A DNA stretch of 64,000 nucleotides, taken from the NCBI GenBank assembly GCA_963825135.1, contig CAWGRW010000009.1, positions 224,001 through 288,000 of the forward strand, given 5' to 3'. The DNA is from an uncultured bacterium. GTDB taxonomy: Bacteria > Desulfobacterota_D > UBA1144 > Nemesobacterales > UBA2774. Below, in pieces: positions 24,231 through 56,720 of the stretch. Under the pieces are notes generated by a model that saw only the letters and a program-made list of their open reading frames with translations, ran no database searches and had not been told where the DNA came from. The position numbers were made by a program, and so were the translations under genes. The stretch's first letter is position 1. The number at the start of each line of letters is the position of its first letter.

Positions 24231-25191
24231 CTATAGAGTGCGCTTGAGGTCGGGCCTGTTCTCCATATACCAGTCGATAGTATCACGGAGCCCTTCCCCG
24301 AGGGATATTTCGGATTCGAAGCCGAACTCCTCCCTTGCCCTGGATACGTCGAGCTTACGCCGCGGCTGTCCGTCAGGGCGCGAGGAGTCCCATTCGACTT
24401 CTCCCTCGTAACCGACCATCTTCTTTATCATATCGACGAGCTCGCGAATCCTGATCTCCTCCCCCGAACCCAGGTTAACGGGGGCGCTCTTGTCGTATCT
24501 CTCGGCAGCCATGACTATCCCCCTCGCGGCGTCCCGCACATAGAGAAACTCCCTCGACGGGCTGCCCGTACCCCACGCCGTGACCTTTTTCAGGCCCCTT
24601 TCCCTGGCGTCATTAAATTTTAGTATCAAAGCGGGTATTACGTGGGCGTCCTCGGCATCGAAGCGGTCTCCCGGGCCGTAGAGGTTCACAGGGATCAGAT
24701 ATATCGCGTTAAAACCGTACTGCTTCCTGTAGGACTCGGCCTGGACGAGCAGCGCCTTCTTCGCCACGCCGTAAGGGGCGTTCGTCTCCTCGGGGTAACC
24801 GTCCCACAAGCTCTCCTCCCTGAACGGAACACGCGTGAGCTTCGGATAAGAGCAGACGGTCCCGACAGCCACGAACTTTTTCAACCCCCGCCCGTCTGGA
24901 GGCCTCCATTAGCTGTATTCCCATGACCGCGTTATCGTAAAAGAGCTCGCCCGGGTGCCTCAGATTGTATCCTATGCCCCCCACATTAGCAGCGAGGTGA
25001 ATGACGACGTCCGCGCCGTCGACCGCGCGCGCGCAATTCTCCCACTTCCTCAGGTCGAGGTCGCCGCTCCGGGGTATGATAATATTCTCCTTCCCGACCC
25101 CTCTCGCCGCGAGCTCCCCGGCGACGAACGAGCCGAGAAACCCGCCCCCGCCGGTAAGTAATATTTTTTTCGAGACGAAATCCTTAGTCAT
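24231..25191 (-). CDS. fcl: GDP-L-fucose synthase, split by a +1 frameshift near 24884
   Basis: TGGGGFLG and HLAANVGGI, then [27 protein letters not shown]. Confidence 0.92.
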
Positions 25192-25255
25192 ATTCCAAAG
25201 TCACCACTGATAAAAATTACGATAAGCTCGCCGCTCCTCCGCCCGGCTGCGGATA

Positions 25256-26299
25256 TTAATCTATTTCCCACCATCTGTCGGGGAATCTTTCTTTCAGTAT
25301 CCTGTCCCCTTCCCCGGGCGGCACGAGCCCTGCCCTTCTCATATCCGCATCCACCATGATTCTCACGAGGTCCCCGAACCCGATAGCGGGCTCCCATCCG
25401 AGGCCCTCTTTCGCCCTCCCGGAGTCCGCTCTCAGGCTCTCGACCTCGTTCGGCCTGAAGTAGTTCGGGTCGCTTTTTACATACTCGCTCCAATTGAGAC
25501 CGACGTAGGAGAAGGCCTCCTCGACAAACTCTCCGACCGAATGCGCCTCTCCCGTCCCGATTACGTAGCTCCGGGGGGCGTCCTGCTGGAGGATCTTCCA
25601 CATCGTCTCGACATACTCGGGCGCGTACCCCCAATCACGCTTTGGCTCGAGGCTCCCCAGGAAAAGGGAGTCCTGTCTACCGAGCAGGATATTGGAGAGC
25701 GCCATGGTAATCTTCCTCGTTACGAACGTCTCGCCCCTCCTCGGGGATTCGTGGTTGAACAGTATCCCGTTGACGGCGAACAGGCCGTACCCGTCCCTGT
25801 AGTTCGTCACCATCCAGTGCGCCATGAGCTTCCCGCACGCGTAAGGGCTCCTCGGACGGAATTCCGTGAGCTCGTTCTGGGGCGGCGGCGAGTCTCCATA
25901 CATCTCGCTGCTCGACGCCTGATAAAAACGGCAGTTTATCCCGCTGCTCCTGATCGATTCGAGGAGCCTCACCGTACCGAGACCGGTGATGTTGTTACTG
26001 TATTCGGGCATATCGAAGCTCACGCGGACGTGGCTCTGGGCCGCGAGGTTGTATATCTCGTCGGGCCTGACGCCGTACATCAGGCTCGTCAAGCTGCCGG
26101 TATCGCTCAGGTCCCCGTAGTGGAGGTAAAGCCTCGCGCCGGGCACGTGCGGATCGACGTATATGTGATCTATCCTCTCCGTGTTGAAGGTGCTCGACCT
26201 CCTTATCAGGCCGTGAACCTCATACCCTTTTGCCAACAAGAACTCTGCGAGATACGACCCGTCCTGTCCCGTTATTCCCGTTATTAGTGCCTTTTTCAT
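25256..26299 (-). CDS. gmd: GDP-mannose 4,6-dehydratase
   Basis: [45 protein letters not shown]. Confidence 0.97.
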
Positions 26300-26496
26300 T
26301 TTTAACCCCGTCCTGTCCCGTATACCGGCCCGACCTCTCGATTCCGTTCCCTTACAGCGGCGCCCGCGTCTAATTATCGCCGCAAACAGAGAAAATAGCA
26401 CGCTTTATGCGCGAAGGGAGAGAGCCTGCCCGGTACGCTTTTCCTGTGCGCATATTACAGGCGTACATATTATATACGGTTATATCCTGCCGCCGC

Positions 26497-27459
26497 TCAG
26501 TATATTGTTTTCTTCGCGTACAGGCCCGCGTAATGGGAAAACCACGACCCCGGCGGATACCTGAACAATACGTCGCTTCTCGCAAGGAGAAACATCTCGA
26601 TTAAAGCGGCTTCCGCCGTTTCCACGGGCAATTCCTGGTGCAGCTCCTTCGAGCTGTCCGTGCCGAATTCCTTTTCGTATGATATTACATTACAGACTGA
26701 TTGTGAGACAAACTCCTGGACAATGCGGGAATCGGTGCATAGAAAGACCGCGTATTCCGAATCCTTAAACCCGGCCGCCGCCTTTTTTATTCTATCCAGA
26801 CAGGCGGCGAGCGCCTTCGTCTGGTCGAGCCAGTACTTCGTATGTCCTGAAGGGGGCATGGCCGGATTGTAATACCTTATATGCACGCCAATGACCTTCT
26901 TGTTTCTGAAATGCTTTTCCTCAAACTCGTCCGCCCTCTCTTTAAGCTCCGCCCTCAATACAAGCGCGTCGAAAAAGGGTTTCAGATTCTGATTCGGGCC
27001 GTAGCAGCCGTGCGTGACGATGATTTTTTGTCTCACGTCGATGAGATTATTTATTATACGGTCCGTCTCCTCCTGCCGTCTTTGCATCCTTCGCTTGAAC
27101 AGATTGTCCGTAATGACGCCCGCTTTACTCAACACCTTATAAAGAATTAAAGACGGGTCGGGTGCGGGGGAGAAAAAGTAGGGGTGTAATATGAGGAGGG
27201 CCGACAAGATGTCGATCCTCGGCTCGGCTATAACCGGAACGCCTTCGATATTTTCCGGGACTTTGAAAAACCGGGTGAACGCGTTCTCCCCTTTATCGGC
27301 CAGGTAAAGCGAGTGCTGCCAGAATACGACAAGGGACCTGTTCGTATGCTTAGCGTAATACCACGCGTTGGCCGCGGCCAGGAGGTTGTCTCCCAACCCT
27401 CTGTTCCGGTGTGAAATAATAACCCTCGGATGCCTTTTCAGTAGCCTCGTAAGGAACAT
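26497..27459 (-). CDS. nodZ: NodZ-like (GT23) alpha-1,6-fucosyltransferase
   Basis: RGLGD..L.AA.AW.YA..T.RSL..W, NAF..FF, VIGVHIR, VFLCTDS and ALIEMFLLAR..L.R.PP.S.F..YA follow recalled NodZ motifs in order. Confidence 0.8.
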   Translation of the reverse strand: MFLTRLLKRHPRVIISHRNRGLGDNLLAAANAWYYAKHTNRSLVVFWQHSLYLADKGENAFTRFFKVPENIEGVPVIAEPRIDILSALLILHPYFFSPAPDPSLILYKVLSKAGVITDNLFKRRMQRRQEETDRIINNLIDVRQKIIVTHGCYGPNQNLKPFFDALVLRAELKERADEFEEKHFRNKKVIGVHIRYYNPAMPPSGHTKYWLDQTKALAACLDRIKKAAAGFKDSEYAVFLCTDSRIVQEFVSQSVCNVISYEKEFGTDSSKELHQELPVETAEAALIEMFLLARSDVLFRYPPGSWFSHYAGLYAKKTIY

Positions 27460-27624
27460 GCCTCAGGTTATTATGACTGATTAAACCGAGGGGTCGATAC
27501 CGGGGCAGGATTGAAGCCGGCAAGCCCCGGATTTCCTTCAATCGAGACTGAGTCTCCCAAACTTTGAAATATTAAATATCCATGCATAATGTAAATGTAT
27601 TAGTGTCAGGGAGGATACCGATTC

Positions 27625-28080
27625 ATGGATTTACAGAAGAAGCACAAATCGCTTTCGCTCGGGGGCCATCTTTATAAATTTTATGCGAAGGGTGAGGACA
27701 CGGGGGGAGCTTACACCTTATTCGAAGCAAATTTACCGCCCATGGACATAGGTCCGCCCCCGCATATACACAGGAACGAAGACGTCGCGTTCTATATCGT
27801 GGAGGGCCTGTTCAGATTTTCTCTGGATGGGAAAGAATTTAAAGCGAAGCCGGGCGACTTCGTGTTCCTGCCCAGGGGACTAAAGCACTGGCTCAGGAAC
27901 GAATCCGATGCGATAGGGAAAATGCTCGTAATCTCTAACCCGGCGGGGTTCGAGAGGCTCTACGACGCGGCGGGAACACCTGTCGAGGACGACGAGAAAA
28001 TGCCGCCCTCTCCCACGAACGAAGAGCTCATGAGACTGGTGCAGGAGGTGCCCAAGTTCGGTATCGAGTTTTTCTTCTGA
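27625..28080 (+). CDS. Cupin domain protein (quercetinase-like)
   Basis: GEDTGGAY, GPPPHIHRNED, FLPRGLKH. Confidence 0.9.
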   Translation: MDLQKKHKSLSLGGHLYKFYAKGEDTGGAYTLFEANLPPMDIGPPPHIHRNEDVAFYIVEGLFRFSLDGKEFKAKPGDFVFLPRGLKHWLRNESDAIGKMLVISNPAGFERLYDAAGTPVEDDEKMPPSPTNEELMRLVQEVPKFGIEFFF

Positions 28081-28117
28081 GATACCGGAGCCCTGTTTTC
28101 CACGGGGTGAAACGCGT

Positions 28118-28573
28118 ATGAATCCTATCAAGAAAAAGAAATCGGTAGCTGTCGTAGGTTCCGTATACAAATTCCTCGCCACCGGGGAGGACACGGGAGG
28201 GGCTTATTCCCTGTTCGAGGCCCTGGTGCCGCCGAGAGACCCGGGGCCGCCGCACCACATTCACAGGAACGAGGACGAGGCCTTATATATACTCCGGGGC
28301 GGGTTCTCGATTTTTCTCGGCGGCGAGGAATTCCGCGGCAAGACGGGTGATTATATATTCCTCCCCCGCGGTATCAGGCACACGTTCAGATCCGATTCCG
28401 ACGAACCCGGCAGGCTGCTCGTAATTGTCAACCCTTCGGGGTTCGAGAAGTTCTTCGACGCCGTAGGAGAGCCCGTTGAGGACGATACGATCCTCCCCCC
28501 GCCGCCGTCAAAGGAGCATATTCAGAAAATTATAGAAGAAGCGCCCAGGTTCGGTATCGAGTTAATCCTCTAA
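28118..28573 (+). CDS. Cupin domain protein (tandem paralog)
   Basis: GEDTGGAY, GPPHHIHRNEDE, FLPRGIRH; same length as its neighbour. Confidence 0.9.
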   Translation: MNPIKKKKSVAVVGSVYKFLATGEDTGGAYSLFEALVPPRDPGPPHHIHRNEDEALYILRGGFSIFLGGEEFRGKTGDYIFLPRGIRHTFRSDSDEPGRLLVIVNPSGFEKFFDAVGEPVEDDTILPPPPSKEHIQKIIEEAPRFGIELIL

Positions 28574-31012: not shown

Positions 31013-31774
31013 TCAGGCATTTAGCAGCCCCCACCTTTCCCTGACGCGGTTCTCGAGCTTCGTGAATACGAACCTGTCGACCGTTATGCCTATGACTATT
31101 ATTATTATCATTACCGCTATGATCTGGCTTATGTCGTTCAACTCCCTCCCCATCGTCAGGAGGTGTCCGAGCCCGATGCTCACGTACAACAGCTCGCCCG
31201 CCATGAGAGCGCGCCACGCGAAGGACCAGCCCTGCTTGAGCCCGCTTATTATGGACGGCATCGCGGCAGGGATTATGACTTTGGTATAGAGATCGAAGCC
31301 GCCCGCGCCCATCGTCCTCGCGGCCCGGAGGTATATGGGGGGCACGTTCTTCACGCCGGAATCGACCCCTATCGTCACGGCGAAGAGCGATCCGAGCACG
31401 ACCACCATAACTATCGCGCTTTCGCTGAGCCCGAACCAGAGGAGCGCTATCGGGAGCCAGCATATGCTCGGGAGCGCCTGGAACCCGAGCACTATGGTGC
31501 CGACAGTCTCGTCGAGCACCTTCACCCGCCCTATCGCGAGCCCAATCAACAGCCCGCCCGCGACGGACAACCCGTAGCCGATCAGCACCCTCTTCATACT
31601 GACCAGTATGCCGATTGTGAAGCTGTTGTCCTGAAAGCCCGCTATGAGCGAGCTTAAGACGCCGAGCGGAGACGGGAACAGGTAAGAGGGCCATATATGC
31701 AGTGCGGCGACCCCTTGCCATATCGCTATCAGGAGCAGATAAAAAGCCGTTAATAGAATTACCTTGCGTTTCAT
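31013..31774 (-). CDS. ABC transporter permease (SsuC/TauC/NrtB-like)
   Basis: LFPSP, QALPSICWLP, EAA-like loop AARTMGA, WRALMAGE; ATG overlaps the ATPase stop. Confidence 0.92.
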   Translation of the reverse strand: MKRKVILLTAFYLLLIAIWQGVAALHIWPSYLFPSPLGVLSSLIAGFQDNSFTIGILVSMKRVLIGYGLSVAGGLLIGLAIGRVKVLDETVGTIVLGFQALPSICWLPIALLWFGLSESAIVMVVVLGSLFAVTIGVDSGVKNVPPIYLRAARTMGAGGFDLYTKVIIPAAMPSIISGLKQGWSFAWRALMAGELLYVSIGLGHLLTMGRELNDISQIIAVMIIIIVIGITVDRFVFTKLENRVRERWGLLNA

Positions 31775-32829
31775 CAGCCGGCCGCCTCCCTCACTCCCGC
31801 GTCGACATCCTCGCCGTCGTCCCTTATCTCGTCGGTGATCCACTTTGTGTTGAGGAACACCTCGGGGTTGCCGGGCTTCCTCGGCCTCTCTATCTCTATG
31901 TCGTGCTCCGACTTGATCCTCCCCGGGTTCTTCGTGAATACGAGCACCCTGTCCCCGAGTATTACAGCCTCCTCCACGTTGTGAGTAACAAAAATAATCG
32001 TCTTATGCGATTCCACCCAGATTCTCTGGAGCTCTTCCTGGAGTGATTCCCTCGTCTGTATGTCGAGTGCGGCGAAGGGCTCGTCCATGAGCAGTATCGA
32101 GGGCTCCATGACGAGCGCCCTCGCGAGCGCGACGCGCTGCTTCATGCCCCCCGAGAGCTGATGGATATACGATTTGTGGAACTTCTCGTCGAGCCCTACG
32201 AGCTTCAGGTAATCGTACGCGAGCTCTCTTCTTATCTTTTGCGTAACCCTTCTCAGCTTGAGTCCGAATTCGACGTTCTCGACCACCGTAAGCCAGGGGA
32301 AAAGCGCGCCCTCCTGGAACACGACGACCCTGTCGGCGCCCGGGCCTTCCACGCGCTTGCCGTCTGAGAGTATCCGCCCGCTCGTGGGCTTGTCGAGCCC
32401 CGCGATCATGTTGAGGAGAGTCGATTTCCCGCACCCGGATGACCCCACTATCGAGACGAACTCCCCGTCCCGGATCGTGATGTTGATATCGCCGAGGGCG
32501 GCAACCTTCCCCTCTTTCGTGCTGAAAACTTTCGAGACGTTTTCCACCCTGAGCCTCGCCTCTTTCTTCTCTATCTTCTGAATGAATATGTTCCACAACC
32601 CCTCCTGCTCGATGACCCGGTAGGGATACCCCCTCCTCTCGCAGAACCTGGGCGCGTTCTCGAGCGCCGTAGGCTCGTGGTCGGATATCGCGAGAAGCAC
32701 CGCGTCGTCGTCGAGCGCCCTTACGGTGTCCCTTATCACGTTCAGGGGATGAGGGCAAATCGCGTCCCTTAAATCCACTACCCTGTCGGGCTTGAGCACC
32801 TCTAATCTTTTAACTGTTTCCAAATGCAT
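31774..32829 (-). CDS. ABC ATPase (SsuB/TauB/NrtD-like) with N-terminal TusA-like sulfur-carrier domain
   Basis: VDLRDAICPHP...ISDHEP...PRFCERRGY...IFIQK fused in frame to GSSGCGKST, LSGGMKQR, LMDEPF. Confidence 0.88.
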   Translation of the reverse strand: MHLETVKRLEVLKPDRVVDLRDAICPHPLNVIRDTVRALDDDAVLLAISDHEPTALENAPRFCERRGYPYRVIEQEGLWNIFIQKIEKKEARLRVENVSKVFSTKEGKVAALGDINITIRDGEFVSIVGSSGCGKSTLLNMIAGLDKPTSGRILSDGKRVEGPGADRVVVFQEGALFPWLTVVENVEFGLKLRRVTQKIRRELAYDYLKLVGLDEKFHKSYIHQLSGGMKQRVALARALVMEPSILLMDEPFAALDIQTRESLQEELQRIWVESHKTIIFVTHNVEEAVILGDRVLVFTKNPGRIKSEHDIEIERPRKPGNPEVFLNTKWITDEIRDDGEDVDAGVREAAG

Positions 32830-32851
32830 CTTCCTTCCTCGCGTTAGACGT

Positions 32852-33950: not shown

Positions 33951-33965
33951 GCAAGACGCGTGCCA
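33951..33965 (-). promoter_or_regulatory. sigma54 (-24/-12) promoter of the ABC operon
   Basis: Minus strand TGGCAC-GCGTC-TTGC, a perfect consensus 40 bp upstream of the start codon. Confidence 0.85.
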
Positions 33966-34198
33966 TAAGCAAAATTCCCTTTAATTTAGAGCAATTCGTA
34001 TTGATTCAAGATTCCCATGTGGTTACTTAATAACCATTCAAAGGGTTACATGTTGCCCGCATGTATAATCCTTATACATCTCTTAGCAGACTGATATTAC
34101 GAAGATATATTGAAATCCCCTCATTTTCTTGACCATAAATCAGGCCTCCTTATACTCTGACTTAAGATAGCAACTAAAATCGAAAACGAGGTTCCAAT

Positions 34199-47062: not shown

Positions 47063-48278
47063 TTACCCTCCAGTATTGCTCTCGGGATCTTTTATTACGA
47101 TTCCGGGTGTGAGGAAATTCTTTTCCTTGACGACTATCTCTTCTTCGACGGGGCTTACCTTCATCCCGGGCATCGCCCTCTGAAGCCCGTTGACTATTAT
47201 CCGGTCATCCGGGCCAACGCCCTGTCTTATCACCCTCAACCCGTTCACCCTGGGCCCGAGAGTGACCTGGCGGTACTCGACCGTATCTTCGGGGTTGACC
47301 ACCATGACAAACTTCTGTGACTGGTCGCTCCCGACCGCCTCGTCGGGCACGAGCAATGCCTTGTACTGCCCGCTGCCCGTGATCTTCATCCGGGCGAAGA
47401 GTCCCGGTGTGAGCGTGTTGTCCGGATTGGGGAATACACCCCTTCCTCTGATAGTCCCGGTATTCGGATCCATCCTGTTGTCTATGAAGTCGACGTATCC
47501 CTTGTGCGGATAGCCCGTCTCGTTAGAGAGCTCCATGAAGGCCGGGCTTTCACCCTTCCTGGAGTCGGGCATCTTCCCCTCCTTCTCGAGGTTGGTGTAT
47601 CTGAGATAAGACTGCTCGTCGGCCTCGAAGTAGCAGTAAACCGGGTCGAGCGAAACTATGGTGGTGAGGAGCGTGCCGCCCGTGCCGCCGTTAATAAGGT
47701 TCCCTTCCGTTACGAATTTCCTGCTGATGAGACCGGTTATCGGGGCCCTCACCTGCGTGAACTCGACGTTTAGCCTGGCGGCGTTAACGTCGGCCTGCTG
47801 CCTGCTCGACGGACGCCTCGGCTACCTGCTCGTCGGAAGCCCTGGTGTCGGCCTCTTCTTCCGAGATCGCCCGCGCGCCCAGGAGGTGCTTCGCGCGACT
47901 GAGGTCGTTCTCCGCGAGAGAAAGGCGGGCTTTCGCGAGCTTTGACTGGGCCAGGGCCCGGTCAAGCTCGGCCTGATAGGGCCTCGGGTCGATTACGAAA
48001 AGCAGGTCGCCCTTTTTCACCGTCTGTCCGTCCTTAAAATGTATGGATTCCAGATAGCCGCTTACGCGCGCCCTCACATCCACCGTATCGACGGCTTCGA
48101 GCCGCCCCGTATATTCGTCCCACTCCACTATCTCCTCGGCTACGGGCTTGCTCACCGTAACCTTGGGCGGCGGGGGCGGGGGGGCTTGACCCTGCTTGCA
48201 AGCGCTAAGCGTTAAACCCAGAACAGCGAAAACGAGTAAAGCCAGACCGGTCCGTAAAATAGTCATATGCATCTGCAT
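47063..48278 (-). CDS. RND membrane fusion protein (MexE-like), +1 frameshift near 47800
   Basis: LSAC lipobox, VRARVSGYL and IDPRPYQ, then RAPITG, TGTIRGR, PGLFAR. Confidence 0.92.
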
Positions 48279-54169: not shown

Positions 54170-54660
54170 AATAATCCTCTTGAACTCTAACCGGTGTGCG
54201 GTATCCAAGTGCCGAATGAAGGTAACTACTGTTGTAATATTGAACCCACTTATCCAGTTCACAACCAAGATCTCTTTCATTCTTCCATTCCCTTAGCCAA
54301 AAGAGCTCTTCCTATATCGTTCTAATCACTCTCTGTATCCGCGTTCCCTTTAGGGTTGTTATAGCTGGTAAATGCCTGATGGACTTCCAGATTGGAACAT
54401 GCATTCATAAAACTGAGTGATGTAGGCTGACTCCCGTTATCACTCATAAACTTTAGTCCATGACCCCTTACTCCTCCAGGGAACTCTCTGTTTAGTCCTT
54501 TCTCCAAGGCTTCCAGCCATTCTCTGCTTGTAGCTCTTCTTCCACTGTAGTGTCCTACTATCTTCTTCGTATACCAGTCCAGTACTATTACTACATAAAC
54601 CCAGCCACTGTCAGTCATAACCTTCGTCATATCTATTCCCCACCACTGTTTAGGTTCATC
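54170..54660 (-). pseudogene. IS3-family transposase (rve core) fragment
   Basis: WGIDMT, LDWYTKKIVG, SDNGSQP, YNNPKGNADTE; frameshifted and 5' truncated. Confidence 0.9.
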
Positions 54661-54664
54661 TGGT

Positions 54665-54816
54665 TATACTGCTACCCTTTTGTCAAACTCGGTTTAAGTT
54701 GGAATTATGAAGAATGCAAGGCTTCCTAACCATTCTGATAACCTTCTGTATATTATATAAGGTGCTTTGTCCAATATCTAATTTAAACTATGGACCTATT
54801 ATAGGGGGGCAGGTCA
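54665..54816 (-). mobile_element. IS3-derived mini-element (152 bp)
   Basis: TATACTGCTACCCTTTTGTCAA ... GGACCTATTATAGGGGGGCAGGTCA. Confidence 0.75.
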
Positions 54817-54940
54817 GTGACAAAAAACAATATCAAGGTAGTTAACAGTACGCCAATTACAATATAGTTTAATTATTTCATGCTCGATCCCCCTTTATGT
54901 TATTTTGTTCAAAACATTGCTGCCTCAATCTCTTCATGCT

Positions 54941-55753
54941 TCAACTATTAGGTTTCCGGGAAATGAAAAGGTAGTTTCCCGCACGTCCTTCATCAATAAG
55001 ACGAAGATAGGTATCAAAAAATTTAACGTGATGATCAGTGGTCTCTTTTCCCTGCTCTTTCACTATAGCATCGTAGTGTTTTTTAAATGCATCACCCCAT
55101 AGCTTGATTTGGATCCTAAAATTCTCTACATCTTCTATCACCTCCATAACCCGAAATCCCGCTTGCTTGAGTTTAGTTTTATAGCTACCTACTGAATCAT
55201 AGTATTCTGGGATAAGACAACCACGAGACATACGTTTAATGACCTCTGGGTCAGCAGGCATATCTATAGCGCCACTTAGAAAAGTAAATATGCCTTTTGA
55301 TTTTAGAACACGAAGAACCTGTCGGAAAAGCCCTTCCTTATCCTTGAACACATTTATTACATTAAAGCTAATTATCACATTAAATGCGTTTTCTGGAAAT
55401 GGCATTTCCATAGCATCACCAAGATGGAAAGTCGCACGGTCACTGAGACCTGAGTCAGCGGCAAATTTTCTTGCTCGTTCTACCCCGACATCTGAAACAT
55501 CAATTCCCATTATTCGACACCCAGTTTTTTGAGCTATATAGATAGCAGGACCTCCTACACCACTTCCAATGTCCAAAACATAAGTGTCGGCATCTATGCC
55601 TGTCTTTCGAATCAATTCATCGAGATAAGGAGGAGTGATAAAAGACTGCTGTCCGATGTCCTGGTTTCCCCAGATGGTTTTTCGCATCAACCGGTTAGCG
55701 GGACTATCCAACTGATGTAATTCCGAGTAATCTGTGCTCTCTTTCTGTTTCAT
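54941..55753 (-). CDS. Class I SAM-dependent methyltransferase (sarcosine/phosphoethanolamine N-MTase-like)
   Basis: VLDIGSGVGGPA, GIDVS, GDAMEMPF, RVLKSKG. Confidence 0.85.
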   Translation of the reverse strand: MKQKESTDYSELHQLDSPANRLMRKTIWGNQDIGQQSFITPPYLDELIRKTGIDADTYVLDIGSGVGGPAIYIAQKTGCRIMGIDVSDVGVERARKFAADSGLSDRATFHLGDAMEMPFPENAFNVIISFNVINVFKDKEGLFRQVLRVLKSKGIFTFLSGAIDMPADPEVIKRMSRGCLIPEYYDSVGSYKTKLKQAGFRVMEVIEDVENFRIQIKLWGDAFKKHYDAIVKEQGKETTDHHVKFFDTYLRLIDEGRAGNYLFISRKPNS

Positions 55754-55862
55754 TTATCCACTCCTTATTGAATATTGTTGCTATTCTAACAAAGTAGAAA
55801 GTAAAAGCAAGGGAGTGTATAGGTTCGCTAGACAAATAGGGATTTTGCTCTATCCAGAATAG

Positions 55863-56720
55863 TCAAGCAGCGTTTATACATAAAGTAATATTCTTGTAAT
55901 ACTCTTCTTCCACCTGTAACGGTGTACGGTATCCATGTGCTGAATGAAGGTAGTTCATATTGTAATATTCAACCCATTTATCCAATTCTAGGCTAAGCTC
56001 TCTTTCATTCTCCCACTCCCTTAACCAAAATATCTCTTCCTTCATTGTTCTTATCATTCTCTCTGTATCTGCGTTTCCTTTTGGGTTGTTGTAGCTTGTA
56101 AATACTTGCTCTACTTCCAGGTTGGAGCAGGCTTTCATAAACTGAGTGAAGTAGGCTGACTCCCGTTATCACTCATGAGTTTTAATTTGCAACCCCTTAC
56201 TCCTATAGGGAACTCTCTGTTTAGTACTTTCTCAAGAGCTTCTAGCCAATCTCTGCTTGTAGCTCTTGTGCCGCTGTAATGACCTACTATCTTCTTCGTA
56301 TACCAGTCCAGTACTATTACTACATATACCCAGCCACTGTCAGTCATAACCTTTGTCATATCTATTCCCCACCACTGTTTAGGTCTGTCCGGTCGGGGCT
56401 TTGGTCTCTCTGATGCCCTCTTTGCTATTAGTCTAGAGTTCGGTTTAACAGTAAGATTATGTTCTCTCATTAACCTGTATACACGCTTCTTGTTTACTAT
56501 AAATCCATCCACGTATCGTAGATATGCCCATACTCTTCTATAACCCCAGAAGGGATGCTCTCCTTTTATATCTTTTATCCTTTCAAGTAAATATTCGTTA
56601 CGAAGAGCTACAGAGTCAGACGTATTTCTCATATGAAGTCTTCCTCTGTTTTTTTTTATTCAACGGTGAGTGAGCCAATTTTCTGCTTTAGCTCCTGATT
56701 CTTCTTACGTAGACGGTTTA
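55863..56720 (-). pseudogene. IS3-family transposase: orfA tail plus frameshifted orfB, right IR lost
   Basis: WGYRRV, VNKKRVYRLMRE, DDE core, HSAHGYRTP; A-run at the orfA/orfB junction. Confidence 0.9.

Follow-up and report, generated by a model that had tools for sequence, protein, structure and literature searches.

SsuABC and TauABC of Escherichia coli are ATP-binding cassette (ABC) importers of the NitT/TauT class, and neither of their ATPases, SsuB and TauB, is known to have a TusA domain. The cyanobacterial importers NrtBCD and CmpBCD have an extra domain, which is C-terminal, binding-protein-like and solute-sensing. In the solved complexes (PDB 8W9M, 8WM7 and 9UA1), this domain lies on one ATPase subunit, a chain C of ~660 residues, and one of the NrtBCD entries is a complex with PII, a precedent in the ABC class for control at the ATPase. 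A TusA-family protein takes part in uptake in YeeE/YeeD (TsuA/TsuB; PDB 8K1R and 8J4C), where, according to the published study, YeeD docks on the thiosulfate channel YeeE and its Cys decomposes thiosulfate, the partner's Cys is needed for uptake in vivo and is modified in the presence of thiosulfate, and natural single proteins, YeeED, unite the two (PMC11073785). Here, we analyze a 64,000-nucleotide stretch of DNA (positions 224,001 to 288,000 of contig CAWGRW010000009.1, assembly GCA_963825135.1; referred to as the window) from an uncultured bacterium of the Desulfobacterota_D, in which a TusA-like domain is fused to the ATPase of a NitT/TauT-class ABC importer.

In its working, this system would be most like YeeE/YeeD: both place a TusA-family domain with a conserved Cys on the cytoplasmic side of an importer of, here putatively, a sulfur compound, and in YeeE/YeeD the attachment is covalent in some species. 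A first-pass annotation of the window had drawn this parallel, and with the natural YeeED proteins named in PMC11073785 the analogy is a fair one. Unlike YeeE/YeeD, the importer is a binding-protein-dependent ABC system, and the domain is N-terminal on the ATPase and not on a membrane protein; because no YeeE-type channel was found in the genome, which is 94% complete, the system is not a member of YeeE/YeeD. With SsuABC/TauABC it shares the NitT/TauT class, a binding protein that passes the SsuA_fam model and TauA as the closest solved binding protein, but the named equivalog models fail, including SsuC (92.2 vs 347) and SsuA (PRK11553; 30.3 vs 299), and no gene for a sulfonate-cleaving enzyme (SsuD, SsuE or TauD) lies immediately beside the transporter genes in 16 loci, i.e., the window and 15 related neighborhoods, taken from the 22 other fusion-carrying genomes where there was enough contig around the gene. 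As in NrtBCD/CmpBCD, an ATPase subunit carries an extra domain, but here this domain is N-terminal and of a Cys-based sulfur-carrier fold. E. coli TusA (YhhP; PDB 1DCJ and 3LVJ) is alike in family and motif, but it is a free protein of 81 aa and the domain described here is not its orthologue. Finally, the clostridial transporter in the CymR operon (CA_C0102-CA_C0110, L050) belongs to the same transporter subfamily and is embedded in sulfur assimilation, whereas its ATPase of 279 aa has no TusA domain and its assignment to sulfate is an annotation.

A TusA-like domain in frame with an importer ATPase

The first-pass annotation had read the gene as one uninterrupted frame with a ribosome-binding site, and this reading holds: 351 codons are open from ATG 32829 with no stop, and GAGGAAGGAAG (32830-32840), a strong ribosome-binding site, lies one base short of this ATG, which follows the TAA of the upstream binding-protein gene at a spacing of 22 nt. 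A start at ATG 32919, as in a longer listed open reading frame (ORF), was rejected; it would overlap the upstream gene, and all close homologues begin M-H-L/I-E, the equivalent of ATG 32829. Pfam recognizes two domains above curated thresholds in the 351-aa protein, TusA (PF01206) and ABC_tran. Across 120 genomes of the phylum, the N-terminal 95 aa recur in 23 in open frames of 333-381 aa, apart from two frames cut short by the end of a contig (261 and 194 aa) and an additional copy in genome G077 that is split; therefore, the fusion is not an assembly artefact, and the alternative of two genes separated by a stop falls away. Genome G077, with 7% contamination, contains two intact fusion copies and a third split into frames of 94 and 66 aa (contigs C2, C13 and C14; L005, L026-L028), and may be a mix of strains.

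Two routes to a separate ATPase were considered and rejected. Three proteins of high identity without the TusA family (P0041, P0044 and P0045) are not unfused forms but truncated gene calls, the call of P0041 beginning inside the ATPase and those of P0044 and P0045 inside or just after the TusA domain. An internal start giving an ATPase-only product could be placed at GTG codon 95, preceded by GAGG in the window; because a GTG is found there in only 7 of the 13 related loci with the junction compared, such a start is not a conserved feature.

The extra domain is, by its sequence, a bona fide member of the TusA family. PF01206 matches residues 17-85 at 44.1 bits with the full-length protein as query and at 48.0 bits with residues 1-85 alone (cut-off 28.6), and in a phmmer search against PDB sequences residues 13-78 align to E. 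coli TusA/YhhP (1DCJ, 3LVJ) with an E-value of 2e-5. In this alignment, Cys25 of the C-P-H-P motif falls on the Cys of the TusA C-P-E-P motif and Cys63 on a second TusA Cys, so that the match to the TusA profile and the register of the Cys agree with what had been proposed for the N-terminus. Ta1170 (E 2.4e-4) is a weaker PDB match of the domain, as is YeeD in the crystal construct of S. thermophila YeeE-YeeD (E 0.005). Among the NCBIfam equivalogs, the domain fails TusA (PRK00299; 31.6 vs 78) and YedF (PRK11018; 24.0 vs 79), and because all equivalog thresholds are failed, we conclude that the protein is not an orthologue of E. coli TusA, YedF, TauB, SsuB or NrtD.

The putative carrier Cys is under constraint. 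In 40 aligned fusions, Cys25 is invariant (40/40), as the interpretation in the first-pass annotation required; Cys63 is retained in 37, Pro26 in 36 and Pro28 in 39, and Pro28, Leu29, Asp50 and Trp79 are each retained in 39-40. Mean identity to the window protein is 64% for the TusA domain and 74% for the ATPase domain, and the dN/dS values of two closely related pairs are 0.096 and 0.050 in the TusA domain vs 0.028 and 0.046 in the ATPase domain. An AlphaFold2 model, built on the alignment of the 40 fusion sequences (pLDDT 83.7, pTM 0.71), has strands at 16-19, 44-49, 70-75 and 78-84 and helices at 27-38 and 52-66, giving strand-helix-strand-helix-strand-strand, the order of elements in TusA. 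A fold search with the whole model returned ABC ATPases only; the match to the TusA fold rests on this order of elements together with sequence. Because the first ATPase strand begins at residue 91 of the model, the linker would be about six residues; confidence across the junction is 75 and 93 (means of 10-residue blocks).

The second domain has the features of a working motor. ABC_tran matches residues 113-253 with 120.6 bits, and G129-T137, Q172, S226-G228, D249-E250 and H283 are invariant in both alignments made (A1 and A2); with the positions of Walker A, Q-loop, LSGG, Walker B and H-loop thus invariant, the ATPase looks functional. Its best structural matches are NrtD/NrtC and CmpC/CmpD of NrtBCD and CmpBCD (41-43% identity, TM-score (target) 0.87-0.91). 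Named ATPase models are missed: SaoA (261.2 vs 360; the 'Sao' models originate from a selenoprotein preprint), ntrCD (241.1 vs 291.8), TauB (238.7 vs 357) and SsuB (187.8 vs 395). Public annotations of such proteins read 'ATP-binding cassette domain-containing protein', 'NitT/TauT family transport system ATP-binding protein' and 'Bicarbonate transport ATP-binding protein CmpD'. In terms of family, the system belongs to the NitT/TauT-class ABC importers, in the SsuA-like branch. The unfused homologues (264-305 aa) begin at the ATPase domain, which bears out the statement in the first-pass annotation that ATPases of the SsuB/TauB/NrtD type normally start there.

Spread of the fusion and sulfur context of its relatives

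The architecture is recurrent. In a cluster search of 5.8 billion proteins, PF00005 and PF01206 occur together in 48 of the best 120 clusters listed, at 50-94% identity, and the next-best matches among these 120 are 54-62% identical in the ATPase part only. Where a source is named, the fused clusters are labeled Candidatus Dadabacteria, Thermodesulfobacteriota, Deltaproteobacteria, 'bacterium HR37' and Actinomycetota; the fusion is restricted to uncultured lineages. The 23 phylum genomes with the fusion comprise 11 of 32 in family f1, 11 of 15 in family f2, none of 72 in other families, and the window's own genome. An orthologue of the binding protein is found in exactly the same 23 genomes, and therefore, across the 120, the transporter is never without the TusA domain. 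Outside the phylum, a metagenome-assembled genome of the Actinomycetota (L048) has an Rrf2 regulator, a binding protein 55% identical to that of the window, a TusA-ATPase orthologue (PF01206, 60.2 bits) and a permease; its Rrf2 regulator fits the CymR and IscR models about equally well but falls short of both cut-offs.

To place the origin of the fusion, a quick tree was computed from the ATPase domains only of 48 fused and 66 unfused proteins. On the free tree, the fused proteins form three groups; a tree constrained to keep them in one group scores 2.75 log-likelihood units above it (p-AU 0.53), so that a single origin, as judged from these sequences, is not rejected, but neither is it proven. 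A search with the 95-aa domain against 1.84 billion representatives gave 43 matches, of which only P0050 (352 aa) is a fusion; because the representatives were clustered at 50%, which hides most fusions, this search is no count of them. The other matches are of 53-159 aa, including two fragments (67 and 85 aa) 92-96% identical to the query; in one further protein, P0142 (1106 aa), a short N-terminal stretch of the query is matched nine times over. No free TusA-like ORF was detected within 8 kb on either side of 79 unfused loci with a profile of the fusion's own domain (no general TusA profile was applied); only L048, a fusion, scored.

The first-pass annotation had stated that it knew no characterized example of this architecture, and we likewise found no description of a TusA-ABC fusion in the searchable literature, which omits most subscription journals. 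A candidate prior description, PMC3543383, concerns a different multi-domain enzyme, and the searchable literature held nothing relevant on Dadabacteria and sulfonate. The conserved TusA-ATPase design is thus apparently undescribed.

Unfused relatives provide evidence about the cargo that does not depend on the TusA domain. The ATPase domains of the nearest are 54-59% identical to that of the window, and 10 of the 79 unfused loci were inspected, namely the six top-ranked and four lower ones (L055 and L068 as ORF lists). In Clostridium polyendosporum (L050), genes for APS kinase, an AprA-like flavoprotein and ferredoxin precede those for the binding protein (43% identical to the window's over its full length), ATPase (domain 54% identical; 279 aa in all) and permease, which are followed by those for a CysD-type PAPS_reduct protein and CysN/CysC. 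The same gene order is found in CA_C0102-CA_C0110 of C. acetobutylicum, which belong to the CymR regulon and whose three transporter genes are annotated 'ABC-type probable sulfate transporter' (PMC4845359, Table 3); it is by this order that CA_C0106-0108 were matched to L050. An Omnitrophota locus (L054) has genes for Rrf2, a CysH-type protein, ATPase, permease and JAB; a Verrucomicrobiota locus (L051) has those for Rrf2, binding protein, one ORF on the opposite strand, ATPase and permease, with MnmA divergent; L052 has those for ATPase, permease, binding protein and a cysteine-synthase-like PALP enzyme; and at L063 MetH lies upstream. No sulfur genes were seen in the annotated neighborhoods of L049, L053 and L069. 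From these gene orders, the sulfur link of the transporter is supported independently of the TusA domain by the sulfate-assimilation and cysteine operons of its relatives, and the SsuA-like transporter subfamily appears to reside in such operons, often behind Rrf2, its substrate apparently being known only from annotation. The first-pass annotation had suggested a cargo containing sulfur or selenium; the former is backed by the operons of unfused relatives, and nothing specific for selenium was found.

The gene cluster and its genome

All genes of the cluster are on the minus strand, in the order sigma-54 promoter, binding protein, fusion, permease, protein X and porin (Table 1).

Table 1 Coordinates of the cluster and its elements in the window
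Feature	Position	Strand	Remarks
Palindrome TGTATAA-N3-TTATACA	34062..34078	-	~113 nt upstream of the sigma-54 box
Sigma-54 type promoter (-24/-12), TGGCACGCGTCTTGC	33951..33965	-	~40 nt before the binding-protein start codon
Periplasmic binding protein, 352 aa	32852..33910	-	NitT/TauT class, SsuA family (Pfam and NCBIfam)
Fusion gene, TusA-like domain and ABC importer ATPase	31774..32829	-	351 aa, stop-free translation
TusA-like domain, residues 13-86	32572..32793	-	PF01206 and alignment to E. coli TusA
Cys25 codon	32755-32757	-	C-P-H-P motif
Cys63 codon	32641-32643	-	Aligned with a second TusA Cys
ABC nucleotide-binding domain, residues 92-320	31870..32556	-	ABC_tran; Walker A, Q-loop, LSGG, Walker B and H-loop present
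Permease, 253 aa	31013..31774	-	BPD_transp_1, 80 bits; ATG overlaps the ATPase stop (TGATG)
Protein X, 220 aa	30103..30765	-	Cytoplasmic, all-helical; 247-nt gap after the permease
Outer-membrane anion porin, 468 aa	28656..30062	-	OprO/OprP family; Porin_O_P, 60 bits

The binding protein adjoins the fusion in 15/15 related loci. It matches NMT1_2 of Pfam with 102 bits and passes the broad subfamily model TIGR01728 (SsuA_fam; 188.4 vs a cut-off of 163.5), with a weak match to Phosphonate-bd (35 bits vs a cut-off of 27), and its closest solved relative is TauA (6SSY, E 2e-16); named NCBIfam equivalogs failed for all three subunits. The permease was recovered in 13/15 related loci, the ORF picker having chosen an overlapping frame in the two others (L034 and L035), and the porin is found in 13/15 as well. 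A paralogue of the porin, 75% identical, lies elsewhere in the genome (L047:7110-8504 (+), i.e., G000:C9:1061110-1062504) beside an OmpR-type regulator and a PAS/Cache histidine kinase, a PhoB/PhoR-like pair.

Protein X is encoded in 9/15 related loci. It has no Pfam, NCBIfam or usable Atlas match, and its AlphaFold2 model (pLDDT 74.7, seven helices) has no Foldseek match at E <= 0.001. Assignment as a zinc peptidase was rejected: the best VIA match (Z 7.2) is to helical parts and within the background for helical models, and there is no HExxH motif. A predicted complex with the ATPase (score 0.01, mark 0.32) is not evidence either way. Protein X has no conserved Cys; its invariant motifs include E-W, Y-x-T-x-E-A, G-Y-S-W-V-R-T-G and W-Q. 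Two paralogues of ~200-220 aa are encoded at L045:7320-7919 (-) and L046:7671-8306 (-), and because one of them is divergent to pstSCAB-phoU, protein X may assist anion ABC importers as an accessory factor.

Upstream of the cluster, TGGCACGCGTCTTGC is the sole exact match to TGGYAYN5TTGC in the window, and a sigma-54 consensus precedes the binding-protein gene in 15/15 related loci. The palindrome is, from its position and symmetry, a candidate site for the sigma-54 activator. L029 has a perfect palindrome of the same type at -110, and L032 has a shorter one at -120, while another, TGATTAA-N3-TTAATCA, lies at about -70 in L037 and L042; in total, 9 of 15 scanned regions (the window and 14 loci) contain perfect palindromes whose arms span 6 nt or more, of which only three are of this type at this distance. 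An activator with a GAF/sigma-54 architecture is divergently adjacent in 3/15 loci (L029, L039 and L040), and that of L029 passes the NifA equivalog model (546.6 vs 528.85). No clear orthologue of these three activators was found in the window's genome, the best match being 43% identical and without the sensor part. Between 27000 and 37000 of the window, a search for a riboswitch or other RNA element gave no Rfam match at E <= 1.

Other neighbors vary. A nitronate-monooxygenase-like gene occurs in family f1 loci only (5/15), and a membrane-anchored ORF of ~180 aa follows the permease in three f2 loci. The nearest candidate desulfonating gene encodes a luciferase-like monooxygenase ~1.6 kb beyond the porin in L039; in the same locus (L039:6123-7100, G010), a PF03601 gene (YeiH, putative sulfate exporter family) lies between protein X and the porin. 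In L029 (11683-16002), from the same genus, the NifA-type activator flanks the cluster and is followed by genes for MoeA, MoaC-MoaB and a MobA-like protein of molybdenum-cofactor synthesis. In L042 (397-3366, G013), protein X is followed by genes for an SBP56-family protein (selenium-binding/methanethiol-oxidase-like), OsmC and SCO1/SenC.

The rest of the genome was searched for other routes of sulfur. By tblastn (1e-8), no other NitT/TauT binding protein or permease was found in it, and YeeE (PF04143), CysP/Sbp (TIGR00971) and DsrE (PF02635) were not found in the 94% that is represented. It does hold an operon of a PHO4-family (CysP-like) permease with PAPS reductase (CysH), an arrangement known from Bacillus, as well as a two-domain sulfite reductase, 13 luciferase-like monooxygenase genes and one TauD gene. 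Sigma-54 boxes precede both the PHO4-CysH operon and the sulfite reductase gene (G000:C9:713338 (-) and G000:C9:2395395 (+); L128:7422-10848 and L129:6395-8713), and a sigma-54 activator is divergent to the former. The pattern has 49 matches genome-wide vs ~24 expected by a rough estimate with uniform base composition, and sulfur assimilation in the organism may be sigma-54 dependent. No activator site shared by the three upstream regions emerged, there being no 9-mer in common with that of the cluster. A free TusA of 78 aa (PF01206, 67 bits) is encoded on the minus strand, and immediately after it come genes for a CysM-like PALP enzyme (TIGR01138, 361 bits, cut-off 394), a JAB/Mec-like protease and a ThiF/MoeB-like adenylyltransferase (G000:C9:854860-857279; L044:5860-8279). 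By its gene content, this cluster looks like a protein-thiocarboxylate route to cysteine; a gene set for cysteine synthesis of this kind is known from Mycobacterium.

Three further regions of the window deserve mention. Downstream of the cluster, 24231..28573 encodes a NodZ-like fucosyltransferase, a GDP-mannose 4,6-dehydratase and an epimerase, followed by two tandem cupin genes of 151 aa each; the epimerase ORF matches the C-terminal half of its profile only (217 aa vs 315 aa in relatives). At 47063..48278 (-), the membrane-fusion protein of an RND pump is present as two ORFs (164 and 229 aa), possibly through a frameshift. At 54322..56632 (-), three integrase-core (rve) ORFs are insertion-sequence remnants around a methyltransferase gene.

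A proposed role in sulfur handling and its alternatives

Our working hypothesis, tentative and given a little less than an even chance, is that the cluster encodes an assimilatory importer of a thiosulfate-like sulfur oxyanion in which the Cys tethered to the ATPase captures or relays sulfane sulfur. The anion would cross the outer membrane through the OprO/P-type porin, be captured by the SsuA-family protein and be moved inward by a dimer of the permease driven by the ATPase. Cys25 on the TusA-type domain of each ATPase subunit would then accept sulfane sulfur from the cargo, forming a persulfide or a thiosulfonate adduct, and the domain would hand it to cysteine and cofactor synthesis, making uptake effectively one-way and avoiding free sulfide. 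Whereas the architecture and its conservation, the invariant Cys, the operon, the sigma-54 promoter and the sulfur-assimilation setting of the relatives are observed, we infer the identity of the cargo, any transfer of sulfur to Cys25 and the direction of such a transfer. The likeliest cargo would be thiosulfate or another anion with a labile sulfane sulfur, thiosulfate being the simplest choice and thiosulfonates a further one; we favor thiosulfate over sulfate because sulfate has nothing to give to a persulfide carrier, because the genome has a separate putative sulfate permease and because the two canonical thiosulfate routes were not found in it. A bolder form of this idea, which we regard as doubtful, is a sulfur import resembling group translocation, in which the Cys25 persulfide would form as the cargo exits the permease, so that transport and the first relay step would be carried out by one machine.

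Several observations weigh against a thiosulfate importer with a sulfur-capturing Cys. In sequence, the domain resembles E. coli TusA (E 2e-5) more closely than YeeD (E 0.005), and TusA does not decompose thiosulfate, according to the YeeD study (PMC11073785). YeeE is present in 8 of the 120 phylum genomes, three of which also have the fusion, and the two therefore do not show a complementary pattern. That Cys25 would lie near the permease exit is a supposition of the hypothesis. If the cargo is sulfate, as relatives are annotated, a persulfide carrier is chemically idle, and the one family-level assignment of the binding protein is 'aliphatic sulfonate', the use of which needs no TusA. The 15 related loci show no conserved sulfur-enzyme gene beside the cluster; in L029 the cluster is flanked by the NifA-type activator and molybdenum-cofactor genes, and the paralogues of the porin and protein X stand beside phosphate-regulon genes.

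The principal alternative, less probable than sulfur capture but a serious competitor, is that the domain is a gate that senses sulfur status. Cellular sulfurtransferases would persulfidate Cys25 when the sulfane-sulfur pool is high, and the ATPase would be locked by trans-inhibition, a mode of control known from regulatory domains of other ABC importers, in which case the cargo could be sulfate or a sulfonate. With a linker of about six residues and high model confidence at the junction, the domain is predicted to sit against the ATPase, as a gate would, and NrtBCD and CmpBCD, the closest solved importers, are regulated at their ATPase subunits (the ~660-residue chain C and the PII complex). 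It is also plausible that sulfur status exerts feedback, given that the relatives are annotated as transporters of sulfate and stand in operons under CymR or Rrf2 control. Moreover, a free TusA is already encoded in the genome, and the need for another carrier is therefore not evident. On the other hand, the regulatory domains known from ABC importers sit at the C-terminus and bind small ligands, and a persulfide switch is not known to us from any ABC ATPase. Conservation of the second Cys and of the whole TusA surface is similar to that in carrier TusA proteins and is compatible with a gate as well as with a carrier; indeed, capture of cargo sulfur and gating are not mutually exclusive.

We consider it unlikely that the domain is a docking platform, recruiting a cysteine desulfurase, a rhodanese or the ThiF/MoeB-like enzyme to the membrane, or a second cellular TusA, serving molybdenum cofactor or tRNA thiolation, that was fused to a co-regulated gene and has no contact with the cargo. 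TusA proteins do act by binding partner enzymes, as in the structure of TusA with IscS (3LVJ), and MoeA, MoaC/MoaB and MobA genes lie beside the cluster in L029 and MnmA beside an unfused relative in L051; however, the molybdenum-cofactor neighborhood is limited to 1/15 loci, no partner gene is conserved in the cluster, and the perfect co-occurrence of fusion and binding protein in 23/120 genomes, with no unfused version of the transporter in the phylum, speaks against both. Least of all do we expect a non-sulfur cargo (phosphite, phosphonate, nitrate or cyanate) carried by a protein whose TusA-like domain has lost its sulfur chemistry: the PhoR/PhoB-like pair beside the porin paralogue, the pstSCAB-phoU genes beside the protein X paralogue, the weak Phosphonate-bd match (35 bits vs 27), the structural proximity of the ATPase to nitrate and bicarbonate transporters, and the sigma-54 type promoter with one neighboring activator that scores as NifA would point that way, but Cys25 is invariant in 40/40 fusions, the nearest relatives lie in sulfate-assimilation or cysteine operons, the binding protein is far stronger as NMT1_2 and SsuA_fam than as a phosphonate binder, and the sulfate-assimilation genes of the genome are also behind sigma-54 boxes.

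These findings bear on sulfur trafficking and on ABC transporters, and the single conserved Cys gives both fields a direct experimental handle. The hand-off from a transporter to a persulfide relay is known in detail for one system, YeeE/YeeD (2024). A carrier domain built firmly into the motor of an ABC importer would mean that this logic arose independently on the commonest class of bacterial importers, and, if the import resembling group translocation is true, this would be the first ABC importer whose motor subunit chemically processes its substrate. The SsuA-like subfamily, which is poorly characterized, is found in the sulfate-assimilation operons of Clostridia, Verrucomicrobiota, Omnitrophota and others and is labeled a nitrate, sulfonate or bicarbonate transporter in databases, may be a general importer of inorganic sulfur. 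For bacteria in which neither CysPUWA nor YeeE is detected, capture of thiosulfate sulfur at the ATPase would, if true, constitute a route of thiosulfate or sulfane-sulfur uptake, and the conserved design suggests that the handling of sulfur begins at the transporter itself.

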